From: Candidatus Aadella gelida | GTDB lineage: Bacteria > Omnitrophota > Gorgyraeia > Tantalellales > Tantalellaceae | Reading direction: 5' to 3' | Assembly: GCA_030765205.1 (NCBI GenBank) | Contig: JAVCDB010000106.1 | Span: 906-64,905 of the forward strand | DNA: 64,000 nucleotides | Part shown: piece by piece, positions 4,921-39,377 of the stretch | How the letters are laid out: each line of letters opens with the position of its first letter | Numbering within the stretch: the stretch's first letter is position 1 | Notes under the pieces: model-generated | What the model was told of the DNA's origin: nothing | Databases searched by the model: none | Seen by the model: only the letters and a program-made list of their open reading frames with translations | Program-made: the position numbers and the translations under genes

Positions 4921-5718
4921 TTACCCTCCTGATATCTCTTTGGACCGATCCTTTGCCATCAATATAGCTTCTTTAATAGCAACCCCGACCTTCTTGTCAT
5001 TAAGAACATTAAGCGCAGATTCGGTAGTACCGCCTTTCGAAGCGACTTTATCTATAAGCTCACTGGGATTTGACCCTGAAGACATTAGAAAATTCCCTGA
5101 TCCTTCAATAGTTCCAAAAACAAGTTGTTTGGCCTTTTCAGCAGAGATTCCCATCTCTACACCGGCCTCTATCATCGCTTGAGCAAGATAAAAAAGATAT
5201 GCCGGTCCCGAACCCGACAAAGCCGTAACCGCATCCATTTGAGTCTCTTCTATCTCAACTACAGTTCCTATGCTTTTGAATATCCCGATAATAGCCTCTT
5301 TATGCTCGTCAGTGATGGAATCAGAAAAAGAAATGCCCGTAACACTTCTCCCAATAAAAGCCGCCATATTGGGCATAGCTCTAACAACGGGGACTTTTCT
5401 GTCTACATACCCTAATATCCCGGAAATATTTACCCCTGCCATAACAGACACTAATACCTGTCCGTCAAGTTTCCCTCTTAATTTTTCCATAAAATCTTGT
5501 GAATCCTGGGGTTTTATAGCAATAAGAATAACATCGCAATTACCAAGGATCTCATCTAGTCCCGCCGAAAAAGCCCCGATCTCCCCTGCAAGCTTGTCCA
5601 TCTTTTCTGCAGCTGCATCGTTCAAGAACACAGAGTCCGGCAAAAGGATATTATTCTTTATTATCCCCTGTACGATAGCTCTGCCCATGTTCCCGCAACC
5701 TATGACACCCAGTTTCAT
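4921..5718 (-). CDS. proC: Pyrroline-5-carboxylate reductase
   Basis: MKLGVIGCGNMGRAI Rossmann motif. Start moved to the internal ATG at 5716-5718; the longer track ORF runs through the upstream noncoding repeat. Confidence 0.85.
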   Translation of the reverse strand: MKLGVIGCGNMGRAIVQGIIKNNILLPDSVFLNDAAAEKMDKLAGEIGAFSAGLDEILGNCDVILIAIKPQDSQDFMEKLRGKLDGQVLVSVMAGVNISGILGYVDRKVPVVRAMPNMAAFIGRSVTGISFSDSITDEHKEAIIGIFKSIGTVVEIEETQMDAVTALSGSGPAYLFYLAQAMIEAGVEMGISAEKAKQLVFGTIEGSGNFLMSSGSNPSELIDKVASKGGTTESALNVLNDKKVGVAIKEAILMAKDRSKEISGG

Positions 5719-5922: not shown

Positions 5923-6066
5923 TGTAACCCCAAGGGGTGAGTATTCCATCTTTTTTGTCGAAAAGTCGAAACACGGAGATTTCGACACACCTCGGACATT
6001 ACGTCCTCAGCGCCTCGTCCTTCGGACTGCGGAACTCGCTGCGAATACTCACCCCTTGGGGTTACA
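5923..6066. repeat. 144-bp element bounded by perfect 23-bp inverted repeats (gtaaccccaaggggtgagtattc ... gaatactcaccccttggggttac); MITE-like, or a cruciform/structured RNA
   Basis: Read directly: copy at 5923-5945, reverse complement at 6044-6066. The interior contains nested small hairpins (gtccttcggac with a UUCG loop, ggacattacgtcc). Confidence 0.6.
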
Positions 6067-26199: not shown

Positions 26200-27042
26200 C
26201 TATACATCTGCCGTCTGACCCATCTCTGTGTAATTAAACTGTCCCTCGGTCTCCTCTATACTTTTCCTCACTACATCTTCATCTATAACATGCGCTTCTT
26301 GAACAAACCCCAACAGCAATGCCTTGTCGCATATTATGTTCACTACTCTGGGGATACCCCTGGAATATTCATAAAGATCTAAAATAGCCTTATCCGAAAA
26401 ATCGGGACCGTTTTCTGAACCAGCAACGGATAGCCTGTGCTCGACATATCCTCGAAGTTCGGTCTCATCAAGTGCTCTAACATGAAACCTAACTCCTATA
26501 CGCTGACGAAGCTGCAATAAACCCGGAGCATTAAGTTTATCCTTAAGTTCCGGTTGTCCTACCAGGACGATTTGCAGAAGTTTCTCTTTCTCGGTTTCCA
26601 AATTAGACAACATCCGTATTGTTTCCAGAGTTGCTTTACGAAGATTTTGAGCCTCGTCGATTATTAAAACCGCATTGTTCCCTAAAGATAATTGCTGAAG
26701 AAGAAATTCATTAAGCTGCCGTATAAAGGCTCCTTTGCTTTTCCTCTTGACCTCTATCCCAAAATCGTTCAATACAGCCTCAAGTAGCTGTGTTTCAGGA
26801 AGGCTAGGATTAAAGATTAGAGAAGTTTTTGTCCTGGAATCGAACTGATTAAGGAGAGCCCGGCAGAGTGTAGTCTTCCCGGCTCCAACCTCTCCAGTTA
26901 TCTCTACAAACCCTTTTCTCTGTTCTATACCATACGAAAGATGCGCAAGAGCCTCACGATGGGTATGACTGAGATACAAAAAGTTCGGATCACTAGTTAC
27001 ATTGAAAGGGTTTTCCCTTAAACCATAGAAATCAAGATACAT
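26200..27042 (-). CDS. ExeA/GspA-like AAA ATPase (MSHA MshM / PEP-CTERM-locus ATPase type)
   Basis: ExeA-type N-terminus (LDFYGLRENPF), Walker A GEVGAGKT, Walker B LIIDEAQ. Confidence 0.8.
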   Translation of the reverse strand: MYLDFYGLRENPFNVTSDPNFLYLSHTHREALAHLSYGIEQRKGFVEITGEVGAGKTTLCRALLNQFDSRTKTSLIFNPSLPETQLLEAVLNDFGIEVKRKSKGAFIRQLNEFLLQQLSLGNNAVLIIDEAQNLRKATLETIRMLSNLETEKEKLLQIVLVGQPELKDKLNAPGLLQLRQRIGVRFHVRALDETELRGYVEHRLSVAGSENGPDFSDKAILDLYEYSRGIPRVVNIICDKALLLGFVQEAHVIDEDVVRKSIEETEGQFNYTEMGQTADV

Positions 27043-36364: not shown

Positions 36365-36856
36365 TTAATCGGCGCAACTGATTATTTCCGCATGAATATC
36401 GTCACCGTCTATTTCGATCATACCGAACGAACATCCCTTCGTACATACCCTGTCGGTTGCGCTTCCGGGATTAAAAAAAAGAACACCATCTATGACTTTG
36501 TTGACAGGCTCGTGTGAATGACCGAATATGATTATATCCGGCTTAGGCGAAAATTCCGTAGCAACATTATCTAACACTTTCAGAGGATGTCCCGATCCGT
36601 GTATAACCCCTATCTTTTTACCAGCTGCCTTAAATGTCAATTTTTTAGAGTAACGATTCTTTATCTCGGAACTATCCATGTTACCCTGAACGACCTTGGT
36701 CTCTGCCATAAGATTTAATTTCTCTATTACGGACTCCTCAACTATATCTCCGGCATGGACTATCAGATCACAATCCTTAAACCGATCGTAAACCTTAGCC
36801 GGCAGATCAAAAGTATTTATTGGTATATGTGTATCGGAGATTACGCCTATTTTCAT
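36365..36856 (-). CDS. YfcE/MJ0936-family metallophosphoesterase
   Basis: MKIGVISDTH...GDIV...GHSH motifs. Confidence 0.8.
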   Translation of the reverse strand: MKIGVISDTHIPINTFDLPAKVYDRFKDCDLIVHAGDIVEESVIEKLNLMAETKVVQGNMDSSEIKNRYSKKLTFKAAGKKIGVIHGSGHPLKVLDNVATEFSPKPDIIIFGHSHEPVNKVIDGVLFFNPGSATDRVCTKGCSFGMIEIDGDDIHAEIISCAD

Positions 36857-38490
36857 TTTACTATTTCAAATTTACCGAAAAGACGCAGGACCACATTGAG
36901 TTGCTTTTGGTCCCAAACCCAGACATTTTGTTCTTTTGCTAAAAGATATGCGTTCTGTTCTATTCCCTTAAGAGGAACAAATATCTTCCTCATGATCTTG
37001 ATATCCTTGTCGGGGAACTTCATGCTCCAAATATCGTGAATATCCTTATCATCAGAAATATCGTTCTGCTTTACATTACAAACCCAAGCTCTCTTGCCTT
37101 TTTTTCCTATGATCTGAAACACCGTATCAGACAATTTCTTTTTCTCAACACTGTCAAATTTAGGCATTTTTTTCATATTCATATTGATCTGCATTTTTTC
37201 GCCGCTAAAACTTTTGAACAGATCATAGATTATATCAGCTGCTTTTTTCTGACTAAAAACACAATATCTTCGGTAGTCATCTGATACTTCCTTCTTAAAC
37301 TCCAGATACTTGATCCCCATATCATCTATCACAGATCGACTCTTCAGATCATAAACATGTTTCAACCAATACTCAAAAAGTTTATCGGCAACGTAATAAA
37401 ATGTCCCGCTATTAAGGACAAGATCCATATCCTGCAATTTTTGAAGATTAAGCCCGGTATCCTTATCAGTTTTCCCGATATGGGCCTGAATGTCCTTAAT
37501 TGTCTGTTTCCCATGTGAGAGCGCCACAAGAATAGGGAGGAACTTCTTCCGGTTTTTTTTCTCAAGAAAAAAGTTAACGTTATTCATGAAATACTGATTA
37601 AGTACTCCGTTGGATTCATATAAAATGTAGGCTAAAGAATCTAAAAGATATTCCTCGTCGTTCTTCTCTCTCGTACTTTCTTTTCTTTTTATCTCCGACA
37701 CTTTCGAAGCCAGGTTCTCTAGATAGAAAGGATTGCCTTGAGTTATTTGGATAAGATAGCTCTTTATATCTTCGGCAATATCTACATCCTTGATTTTCTC
37801 GGACACAAAAGAACGAGCTGTCTGATTATCAAAACCGTCGATCTCAAGAACCTCAAAATTCCCAAAAAGAAGCGACAGTTTTTTAGTCAATATATCTTTT
37901 AGTAAGGATTTCTGAGAACTAGAAACTATATACATGGTATTTTTCTGTACCATGATAAATTTTCCAAAAACCTGAAAAGGTCTTCTAAGCTTGAAATTTG
38001 ACAGATTATGAAACTCGTCAAGAATGACCACACAATTCTTACCGGTCTCCTGTTTGAAAACAGAAGTTATTTCCAAAAGAGTCCCGTAAGCTTCCTCATT
38101 CTTCTTCCCGTCAAGACAGGTTGAGACCTTATCCATAGCACTAACGGTTTTGGGTATCATCCCTTTGGCTTTCATTCTGAGTGATTCAAAATCGTTTTCC
38201 GCCTTTTCCCCTTCAGACCGCAGGTAACGATACATCAAAGCTGCCATGAATTGAGTACAGAAAAAACGAAAATCCACCCCGTCCATTTCAATATACAACG
38301 GAATAACATCGGGGTCTTTGATACTTTTAAGAAAATGTCTTAATATGGAGGATTTACCGGCAAGCATAGGACCCGTAAGAGCGAGATTTTGTCTATACCC
38401 GCCTTTAAGGTCTGTAACTCTCTTCTGTAAAGTTCCGACCACTTCTTCCCGGCCGAACAACTTTTTACCGAAAACTGGTTCAATAAACAT
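36853..38490 (-). CDS. AAA+ ATPase of archaeal ATPase (Arch_ATPase) type with a C-terminal DUF234-like region
   Basis: Walker A GPMLAGKSS, Walker B VVILDEFH; 545 aa. Overlaps the esterase gene by 4 bp. Confidence 0.6.
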   Translation of the reverse strand: MFIEPVFGKKLFGREEVVGTLQKRVTDLKGGYRQNLALTGPMLAGKSSILRHFLKSIKDPDVIPLYIEMDGVDFRFFCTQFMAALMYRYLRSEGEKAENDFESLRMKAKGMIPKTVSAMDKVSTCLDGKKNEEAYGTLLEITSVFKQETGKNCVVILDEFHNLSNFKLRRPFQVFGKFIMVQKNTMYIVSSSQKSLLKDILTKKLSLLFGNFEVLEIDGFDNQTARSFVSEKIKDVDIAEDIKSYLIQITQGNPFYLENLASKVSEIKRKESTREKNDEEYLLDSLAYILYESNGVLNQYFMNNVNFFLEKKNRKKFLPILVALSHGKQTIKDIQAHIGKTDKDTGLNLQKLQDMDLVLNSGTFYYVADKLFEYWLKHVYDLKSRSVIDDMGIKYLEFKKEVSDDYRRYCVFSQKKAADIIYDLFKSFSGEKMQINMNMKKMPKFDSVEKKKLSDTVFQIIGKKGKRAWVCNVKQNDISDDKDIHDIWSMKFPDKDIKIMRKIFVPLKGIEQNAYLLAKEQNVWVWDQKQLNVVLRLFGKFEIVK

Positions 38491-38659
38491 AAGAAGGAAA
38501 TCTCAAATAATTATGAATAATAACGAATAAAATACCGCAATAAATAAACGGGTTAGTTATTAAAAACCAAGAACACATCTTATATTATCCCCCCACCCAA
38601 GTCAATATATATATTAAAATAAATGCCACACTTTCAAGCCCAATTTCCCTTGACAAAAT

Positions 38660-39300
38660 AATAGCCCCTTCGTCCGAATTTATTGTCACTACCATTATCG
38701 GAAACCGAGGCAAAGCCAAGGTTTCAAGAACGTCTGGGGCCACCTTTAAACACAAAAAAGGGGACAGTTGCCCTCACAAATTCGCAAACGGTACAAAATA
38801 GGGACATATGCTGAGTAATTGAACCTTTGTCAGAGTTTATTGTCGTTATTATTATCGGAAACCGAGGCAAAGCCAAGGTTTCAGGGTAGTTCCGTGTACA
38901 GCAAGGGGAAACCGAGGGCGAAGCCCAAGGTTTTAAGATAGTTCACGTGTACGGTGAGGGGATACCGTGTTACTCTTCCCTGCTACACTTACAGGTTCCC
39001 ACGAGCTCGCTCCGATGTTTGCGAGGAAAACTTTCTGGAAAGCTCGGTTTTCAGAAAGTTTGACGACCAAACATCAAAAAAAGGCAACTGTAAACAGTTG
39101 CCTTTTTGCCATAATTTTTCGAAGAAAAATTATGGAACGAGTGAGGGGAAACCGAAGCCACAGGCTGAGGTTCCCACGAACTCGCTGATAATGTTTGCGA
39201 GGAGAAATTTTAGAAAAGCTTGCTTTTCTAAAATTTTGACGACCAAACATTAAAAAACCCAAGTGCAAACCACTTGGGTTTTACCAACTTTTCCCTGAAA
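38660..39300. repeat. Array of degenerate direct repeats derived from the 3' half of the adjacent tRNA-Gly. It includes a 60-bp duplication (38668-38727 and 38824-38887) and two tandem ~150-bp paralogous units (38951-39110 and 39137-39282), each ending in a hairpin plus T-run
   Basis: Read directly: cgagtgaggggaaaccgaagccacaggctgag versus the tRNA's cgagtgaggggaatcgaacccccgtagccagc. Terminator hairpins at 39083-39108 and 39257-39282. Confidence 0.65.
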
Positions 39301-39303
39301 AGT

Positions 39304-39377
39304 TGGAGCGAGTGAGGGGAATCGAACCCCCGTAGCCAGCTTGGGAAGCTGATGTACTACCATTGTACTACACTCGC
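39304..39377 (-). tRNA. tRNA-Gly (anticodon CCC), CCA encoded
   Basis: Hand-folded: acceptor GCGAGTG/CACTCGC, D-stem GTAC/GTAC, anticodon stem TCAGC/GCTGG with loop TTCCCAA, T-arm GGGGG-TTCGATT-CCCCT, discriminator U, CCA. Confidence 0.8.

Follow-up and report, generated by a model that had tools for sequence, protein, structure and literature searches.

A variable array of gene-less hairpin modules downstream of tRNA-Gly(CCC) in Candidatus Aadella gelida and related Omnitrophota

Results

The tRNA-Gly(CCC) locus and its hairpin array

We analysed a stretch of 64,000 nucleotides from Candidatus Aadella gelida (Omnitrophota; contig JAVCDB010000106.1), hereafter the window, and in particular the non-coding gap of 813 nt between its tRNA-Gly(CCC) gene and the open reading frame (ORF) of an AAA_16 ATPase. 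The tRNA gene lies at 39304-39377 on the minus strand, with the CCA encoded, and is called by both ARAGORN and the Rfam tRNA model (67.7 bits), which confirms what an earlier note, made from this DNA sequence alone, had read there. It starts 22 nt after the stop codon of pfkB. The arrangement of pfkB followed by tRNA-Gly(CCC) is conserved in Omnitrophota, and the nearest homologs of the window pfkB all come from metagenome-assembled genomes of Candidatus Omnitrophota.

Read in the direction of the tRNA, the gap is a succession of hairpin modules in the order tRNA-A1-T1-H1-M1-A2-T2-H2-M2-M3-M4-MITE end-M5, followed by a promoter-like site, which is the distal border of the variable zone, and the ATPase gene (Table 1). 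The A modules are small hairpins, the T modules resemble intrinsic terminators, H is a long hairpin and M a mini-tRNA hairpin; MITE stands for miniature inverted-repeat transposable element. H measures 62-64 nt; a 7x7 internal loop (GTCGTCA / CTCCTCG) separates its 8-bp outer stem from an inner stem of 10-14 bp. M has AGCGAGYTCGTGGG as its conserved 5' arm, then an inner hairpin that is GC-rich and variable, and a tRNA-like 3' arm, ...TCCCCTCACTCG(TTCCA).

The 5' arm of M resembles tRNA positions 1-6 fused to the variable loop and the 5' strand of the T-stem. An acceptor-like stem is stacked on a T-stem-like GGG/CCC helix, and two copies keep a discriminator base and CCA. Judged from its sequence, M looks like an internally deleted tRNA-Gly, a putative acceptor/T-arm "minihelix" in which an extra hairpin replaces the T-loop. 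In M1 the parts are a 5' acceptor-like arm, AGCGAGTTCGTGGG, the inner hairpin, and a tRNA-like T-loop with a 3' acceptor strand ending in TCCA; its last three bases (CCA) are also the first three of A2, so that the two overlap. M4 lies within the first copy of a 68-nt direct repeat and M5 within the second, and the 89-nt piece between them holds the transposon end. Furthermore, a 28-nt motif in M2, GTAAGTGTAGCAGGGAAGAGTAACACGG (window 38963-38990, minus strand), recurs at related loci L088 (6173-6200) and L085 (6920-6947) and is near-invariant across these three species, whose genes are about 75% identical.

tRNA-like copies and direct duplications

The earlier note had claimed at least four decayed copies of the tRNA 3' segment in this gap, together with a 60-bp direct duplication. 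We aligned the tRNA locally against the 813 nt, with 500 shuffles as the null. Only one match is significant: 27 nt within M1 (39159-39133), in direct orientation and running from the T-loop through CCA, with a score of 32, whereas the shuffles reach 23 at the 99th percentile and 30 at most. The remaining claimed copies, M2 to M5, share only 7- to 9-mers with the tRNA (for example TCCCCTCAC in M2 and TTCCCCT in M3), which is within the shuffle null.

The same four modules are clearly akin to M1 and to one another (repeat families D4, D6, D7 and D8), and they carry a derived core, GGGGAAACCGA, in place of the tRNA's GGGGAATCGAA. M2 is a genuine decayed copy of the tRNA end, because its ortholog in L088 keeps GTGTCCCCTCACTCGCT, which matches the tRNA end at 15 of 17 positions. 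The claim of several copies thus holds for M1 by alignment and for M2 through its ortholog, whereas the direct resemblance of M2 to M5 to the tRNA does not exceed chance. A founder M hairpin gave rise to the weaker copies, which do not stem from separate captures of the tRNA end.

All M copies are hairpins, since the upstream arm AGCGAGYTCGTGGG pairs with the tRNA-like end, and the modules they belong to follow a recurrent order. The claimed direct duplication is confirmed, and the gap in fact has two of them: 38659-38726 with 38816-38883 (68 nt, 85% identity, repeat D1) and 39015-39081 with 39191-39257 (67 nt, 84% identity, repeat D2).

A displaced tRNA end and related cassettes

T-H-M modules are also found in three other species (L088, L085 and L255), whose pfkB proteins are 74-78% identical to that of the window. 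The array of L088 reads tRNA-A-T2-H-M1'-M2'. In L085 we find tRNA-T0-T1-H-M-MITE end, repeated once more, and then H-M(CCA)-terminator-inverted tRNA 3' end; its T1-like copy (6011-6043) is 79% identical to T1 of the window. The order in L255 is tRNA-A-T2-H, an inverted tRNA-end hairpin, and then M-like copies. The inverted tRNA 3' ends lie at 6781-6800 in L085 (TGGAGCGAGCGAGGGAAATCGA, one mismatch) and at 5120-5136 in L255 (AGCGAGTGAGGGGG), so both orientations occur.

The comparison that carries the interpretation is between the window and L088. Window positions 39150-39077, which comprise the 3' end of M1 followed by A2 and T2, are 94.6% identical to the real tRNA 3' end of L088 with its hairpin and terminator. 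For the same pair, identity is 74-76% in pfkB and ThiC and 90.5% in the tRNA. An older tRNA end was therefore pushed downstream by inserted material. M1 sits where an earlier functional tRNA end was, and a block composed of the new 3' end, A1, T1, H1 and the 5' arm was exchanged in upstream of it. Such a displacement has the geometry of an attachment-site (att) type of exchange.

Three further features bear on the nature of the inserted block. First, A1/T1 and A2/T2 are not homologous, while H1 and H2 are 84% and the M 5' arms 95% identical; the two units are therefore related cassettes and not simple tandem duplicates. Second, the junction from T to H is direct (0-2 nt) in five of five cassettes from four species, so the unit is natively small and not what remains of a large island after deletion. 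Third, the 3' arms of M track the local tRNA, with CACTCG in the window and L088 and CGCTCG in L085, which is the expected outcome of exchange at a shared segment. The third M of L085 ends in CCA and is followed by its own terminator, and it seems to record a separate event of this kind. We regard the displacement geometry, the modular build, the restriction to one locus and the pattern of presence and absence described below as shown.

Taken together, we tentatively favour, as a reading that may well hold, that recombination in the last ~17-27 nt of tRNA-Gly(CCC) has stacked gene-less T-H-M cassettes in the gap, and that the stack was reshaped later by local duplication, deletion and decay and joined by a MITE end.

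A simpler account has neither mobility nor function, with slippage or unequal crossing-over at a hairpin-rich tRNA end producing tandem duplications that decay neutrally. We consider it improbable. In its favour are the two ~67-nt direct repeats of 84-85% identity in the window, a 266-nt H-M-MITE unit duplicated in L085, and a ~107-nt tandem duplication that starts inside the tRNA-Gly T-loop in the unrelated planctomycete contig L023. On the other hand, A1/T1 and A2/T2 hold equivalent positions and are unrelated in sequence. At a gene identity of 74-76%, neutral DNA should no longer align at all, yet identity reaches 91-95% in A2-T2 and M2, and the changes in H are compensatory and not random.

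Two non-Omnitrophota loci with tRNA-Gly(CCC) after pfkB, L041 (5028-5230) and L023 (3792-4023), have an exact copy of the 3' 17-20 nt about 105 nt downstream. The copy in L023 belongs to the plain tandem duplication just mentioned, and in L041 a hairpin-rich insert of ~90 nt is apparently bounded by the tRNA-end repeat.

Variation among relatives and the island explanation

The space between tRNA and ATPase varies widely, from 52 nt in L317 to ~700 nt in L255, 813 nt in the window and more than 1 kb in L085. Cassettes are present at four of the 14 related Omnitrophota loci examined. L253 and L258 have a short gap without H and M modules, L257 also lacks both and has a different gene after its tRNA, and L319 has a solo MITE end downstream of tRNA-Gly(CCC). 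The earlier note's suggestion of a recombination site beside the tRNA stands in this sense, as its 3' flank is a hot spot of recombination and insertion.

Within 519 kb of mostly Omnitrophota DNA, H is detected (covariance model R1) only at tRNA-Gly(CCC) loci. The regular expression for the M 5' arm likewise matches solely at such loci among the related loci scanned, and neither module has a copy elsewhere in the 64-kb window. An origin of the tRNA-like hairpins from the "heptad" MITEs named in the earlier note, or from another MITE, was rejected on this basis.

The genes beyond the gap are stable. ATPase, Metallophos_2, Na_Ca_ex and HD follow the tRNA in this order in L005, L007, L253, L255, L258, L316, L317 and L319. 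The identical ATPase protein is also encoded on JGI 3300025669 Ga0208904_1000089 (79 kb) and on contigs of three further samples. In L316, pfkB and tRNA-Gly are set apart by an inserted pair of nucleotidyltransferase/substrate-binding (MNT/HEPN-like) genes (4964-5660), so the upstream side of the tRNA is variable too. Contigs L089, L318 and L085 end in or just past the array downstream of tRNA-Gly, which would fit an assembly broken by repeats or by DNA that differs between strains.

The model first put forward in the earlier note was one of attR/attL scars left by serial integrase-bearing islands at the tRNA, with the ATPase/esterase pair as leftover cargo. It would account for the direct-orientation copy of the tRNA 3' end downstream, for the displaced old end with its old terminator and for the variability of the locus among relatives, and we nevertheless regard it as unlikely. 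The cargo part does not survive the comparison: the AAA_16 ATPase/Metallophos_2 pair is conserved core synteny, because the same order is kept in eight relatives, near-empty sites such as the 52-nt gap of L317 included.

As for serial large islands, independent deletions of such elements are not expected to leave an identical direct T-to-H junction in five cassettes, the copies have a conserved complementary 5' arm and common derived changes, and the weaker ones come from the founder M. No integrase, transposase or recombinase family was found among the 38 window ORFs compared with Pfam or in the annotation of the parent contig, in agreement with the earlier note's remark that no integrase remains, and no recombinase among the ORFs downstream of the tRNA in L085 and L088.

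Structure and conservation of the modules

A different explanation is that the cassettes have a function as structured RNAs or as RNA elements acting in cis. They could be, for instance, tRNA-like minihelices on which RNase P, RNase Z or the CCA-adding enzyme acts, or a small RNA that is transcribed towards the tRNA and ends at bidirectional terminators. The shape of H is kept through compensatory changes at 14 of its 20 pairs (six copies, across species), and the sequences of its internal loops are conserved. A2-T2 (94.6%) and M2 (91%) are more similar between species than the coding genes and the tRNA itself, at the values given above. M retains a helix of the acceptor/T-arm type, with CCA kept in M1 and in the third M of L085.

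The strand antisense to the tRNA folds better, by 4-9 kcal/mol, in all four H copies folded both ways, and on this strand tandem G.A patterns arise in the internal loops of H and likewise in the 2x2 loops of M. L255 has the pattern (G.A)(A.G)(C-G) three times. All terminators bear A-runs as well as T-runs.

Several observations speak against the RNA explanation, which we hold to be possible but rather doubtful. The units lie past strong terminators and ahead of the next promoter, the terminators are called solely in the direction of the tRNA, and a consistent promoter is found on neither strand. The sole antisense promoter-like site lies in A2 and in L088 would read into the real tRNA. This site, TTGCCA-16-AATTAT, covers window 39106-39133 (plus strand) and L088 5998-5971 (minus strand) at A2/T2, and is conserved in both. 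Moreover, copy number ranges from 0 to 3 with many close relatives having no unit, no Rfam family matches, and decay is visible in M2 to M5. Antisense small-RNA genes were rejected as well: the antisense fold is better, yet a consistent promoter was absent in the scans.

With Rfam 15, only the tRNA passes the gathering score in the window, L085, L088, L255, L318 and L089. Below threshold, the ylbH leader scores best in the window, with 33 bits where 50 are required, a match driven by the terminator. Neither M1 nor M2 is called as a cloverleaf, as ARAGORN and RF00005 report only 39304-39377 even at E <= 10. Known RNA families (tRNA-adjacent RNAs of the GOLLD/ROOL type, group II intron domains, Y-RNA-like RNAs and tmRNA) were dismissed for want of an Rfam match.

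By inspection, H was also rejected as an attC-, IS200/IS605-, bridge-RNA- or repetitive extragenic palindrome (REP)-like element, the end motifs being unfit or the partner gene absent. In the case of integron attC, the outer arms of H read 5'-ATGTTTG ... CAAACAT-3' on both strands, the opposite of 5'-RYYYAAC ... GTTRRRY-3'.

A dispersed MITE family at the same locus

The segment at 38736-38797 has a separate identity. The motif TTTGTACCGTTYGCG-N16-TGTCCC occurs in 70 copies on 56 metagenome contigs, in addition to tRNA-Gly loci, and the flanks always differ. We identified 26 complete elements, of 78-402 bp, which are non-coding, have inverted ends and carry two ...GTGTCCCC sites per end. The layout of an end is TGTACCGTTTGCG, 16 nt, GTGTCCCC, ~17 nt, GTGTCCCC, with right ends inverted, and several contigs hold two or three copies. 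By these sequence features, the family would be a dispersed MITE family with terminal inverted repeats (TIRs).

The window copy consists of a left end only, with no right end, and is 96.6% identical to L276 1769-1826, a contig of the same metagenome. The earlier note had allowed that its tRNA-like segments might belong to a MITE family; this is the case for 38736-38797 and is not the case for the tRNA-like hairpins.

Copies of the family follow the CCA of other tRNAs (tRNA-Met and tRNA-Gln) at a distance of 0 nt (L292 1569) or 9 nt (L288 ~645/L314), and lie 4 nt after M in L085 (6172, 6438) and directly after a terminator hairpin in L290 (~77), which suggests a preference for insertion beside hairpins or tRNA ends. 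A MITE end is also found downstream of tRNA-Gly(CCC) in L085, L089 and L319. Flanks are mostly TT...AA, extending the inverted repeat, with TT...TT in two copies.

No transposase is found beside the longer copies in L280 and L285, where the neighbours are a giant protein and unannotated ORFs. The giant protein is a 2732-aa ORF at L280 229-8427 (minus strand) that adjoins the MITE copies. Giant proteins have been reported as typical of Omnitrophota (bioRxiv 10.64898/2026.06.07.730766).

Feature coordinates and other content of the window

Coordinates, fold energies and repeat assignments of the modules are listed in Table 1. Outside the array, the window is housekeeping DNA read from the minus strand, with the dcw cell-wall cluster, genes for thiamine, an RND efflux system and a tRNA synthetase of class I (isoleucyl-type). 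Coding is sparse between 22100 and 27050, where several small ORFs have no Pfam match; an AAA_22/AAA_16/nSTAND-like ATPase of 280 aa lies within this stretch (26200-27042, minus strand).

Table 1. Features between tRNA-Gly(CCC) and the ATPase gene, in the direction of the tRNA (window positions)
Feature	Position	Strand	Remarks
A1, small hairpin	39285..39303	-	Immediately 3' of the tRNA CCA; aacttttcagggaaaagtt, read from the sequence
T1, intrinsic-terminator-like hairpin	39252..39282	-	A-run before the stem, T-run after; 12 pairs (terminator scan); inverted repeat I8
H1, long hairpin	39189..39252	-	Fold -20.1 kcal/mol, z = -6.65; model R1 75.3 bits
M1, mini-tRNA hairpin	39133..39186	-	Fold -22.9 kcal/mol, z = -3.9; 27-nt significant tRNA match
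A2, palindromic hairpin	39109..39135	-	Perfect 12-bp; inverted repeat I11; 96% identical to L088 5969-5995
T2, terminator-like hairpin	39076..39107	-	13 pairs (terminator scan); stem also in L088 and L255 (88%)
H2, second H copy	39014..39075	-	Repeat D2; fold z = -3.96; model R1 70.4 bits
M2, decayed mini-tRNA hairpin	38953..39011	-	Repeat D7; 5' arm 95% identical to that of M1; 91% identical to L088 6154-6213
M3, core M-type hairpin	38901..38935	-	AAAACC-TT-GGGC-TTC-GCCC-TC-GGTTT, then CCCCTTGC; repeats D4, D6; fold z = -2.3
68-nt direct repeat, copy 1, with M4 (38857-38882)	38816..38883	-	D1, 85%; exact 26-mer twice; z = -4.1
Solo left end of putative TIR-MITE/transposon family	38736..38797	-	TTTGTACCGTTTGCG, 16 nt, TGTCCCC, 17 nt, TGGCCCC
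68-nt direct repeat, copy 2, with M5 (38700-38725)	38659..38726	-	Repeat D1; shared exact 26-mer
Promoter-like site TTGACT-17-TAAGAT	38577..38605	-	Precedes the ATPase operon (promoter scan); same motif in L253
AAA_16 / ATPase_2 gene	36853..38490	-	Pfam; syntenic neighbour in eight related loci

Discussion

A possible history of the array

Under the cassette reading, the gap between tRNA-Gly(CCC) and the promoter of the next operon would be a hypervariable landing pad for small gene-less cassettes. Each cassette, of ~150-175 bp, would consist of a terminator-type hairpin T, sometimes preceded by A, an abutting H and then the mini-tRNA hairpin M, whose 5' arm would mimic the 5' strands of the tRNA acceptor and T-stem and whose 3' arm would be the segment from T-loop to CCA. 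Entry would take place by recombination in the last ~17-27 nt that tRNA and M have in common, in the window as a block of ~170 bp. The incoming block would give the tRNA a fresh 3' end and a terminator. The previous 3' end, with its old terminator, would be pushed downstream and fused to the H and 5' arm of the cassette; M1-A2-T2 in the window is a displaced end of this sort.

We infer both the agent of exchange and the mobility of the 170-bp unit. The exchange may be carried out by a site-specific recombinase encoded elsewhere that acts in trans on a non-autonomous, att-bearing cassette, or it may be an unequal homologous exchange between tRNA and M. Later, tandem duplication (of the 68-nt repeat and of an H-plus-5'-arm block), deletion between M repeats and decay could have produced M2 to M5, and the dispersed MITE family would have inserted independently, leaving one solo end.

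A number of results weigh against this history. The negative searches for integrases, transposases and recombinases in the window, its parent contig, L085 and L088 count against mobile cassettes as they do against islands. None of the loci compared showed a full-size element in which cargo separates T from H, and a 170-bp unit is too small for an ordinary integrative element. The region, the M module and the tRNA end are absent from the phage, plasmid and viral contigs searched: in viral contigs, 0 matches were obtained with the M pattern and with the tRNA 3' end, blastn against phages and plasmids returned nothing, and two 15-mer viral scans gave chance matches only, none of which extended; a phage or plasmid origin was therefore rejected. 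The compensatory evolution of H, its conserved loop and the conservation of A2-T2 and M2 above that of the tRNA are explained by selection for a function no less well than by recent transfer. Finally, the history is drawn from four cassette-bearing species only.

Comparison with known systems

Islands with tyrosine integrases reportedly target the T-loop or the 3' end of tRNA genes, giving att repeats and tandem accretion (Williams 2002, NAR). The array agrees with att accretion at tRNAs in having a direct tRNA 3' copy downstream, in incoming DNA that would rebuild the tRNA end and bring a terminator, and in an older end displaced together with its flank; units are stacked at one tRNA and are present or absent among relatives. 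It differs in that the window units are gene-less, of ~170 bp, and have a fixed terminator-H junction, and in that the att-like copy is a conserved hairpin which also mimics the 5' acceptor strand. Neither a known integrase nor a large parent element is seen here. Gene-less derivatives flanked by att sites reportedly exist in the form of cis-mobilizable elements (CIMEs), namely the CIMEs of Streptococcus thermophilus.

In common with MITEs, the family of 38736-38797 is non-coding and dispersed and has terminal inverted repeats, TGTACCGTTTGCG...CGCAAACGGTACA. The window, unlike a complete MITE, holds one end only, and H and M are not dispersed, with none outside tRNA-Gly(CCC) loci in the 519 kb.

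Known tRNA-like structures include acceptor/T-arm minihelices, which are substrates of RNase P and of the CCA-adding enzyme, and processing signals of the mascRNA type. M resembles them in its acceptor-like stem set on a T-stem-like helix and in the discriminator base and CCA of two copies. It departs from them in that a hairpin replaces the T-loop and that ARAGORN and the Rfam tRNA model make no call for M.

REP elements and bacterial interspersed mosaic elements (BIMEs) are clusters of intergenic palindromes, REP elements being dispersed in hundreds of copies. As in those clusters, imperfect hairpins are stacked after the terminator of a gene and vary in copy number between relatives. In contrast to them, H and M are confined to one locus, and a REP-associated tyrosine transposase (RAYT) was not seen.

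Our literature search found no description of the array or of the MITE in Omnitrophota. It is conceivable, although we would not call it probable, that T-H-M represents a type of element not described before and restricted to tRNA-Gly(CCC) in this phylum. It would be either a gene-less cassette mobilised in trans with a minihelix-mimicking attachment site, or a family of tRNA-mimicking small RNAs whose H, with its conserved antisense loop of the G.A type, binds a dedicated protein.

Significance

These data partly support the earlier note's idea of recombination scars at a tRNA and do not support serial large islands; the tRNA 3' flank is a hot spot of recombination and not what is left of a large genomic island. 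In practical terms, the locus breaks assemblies, and the adjoining ATPase pair should not be annotated as island cargo. The dispersed MITE is a usable marker for its putative transposase in Omnitrophota.

It is unusual to find conserved tRNA-mimic cassettes limited to a single tRNA locus, here in a phylum that has received little study. If H and M are RNAs, they would form a new tRNA-mimic family. If the cassette reading is true, tRNA 3' ends would gather, besides large islands, tiny gene-less and self-similar units that carry an acceptor/T-arm mimic. Such cassettes would stand to integrative elements, in miniature, as MITEs do to transposons, and would open a way into the recombination systems of a phylum for which metagenomes are almost the only source.

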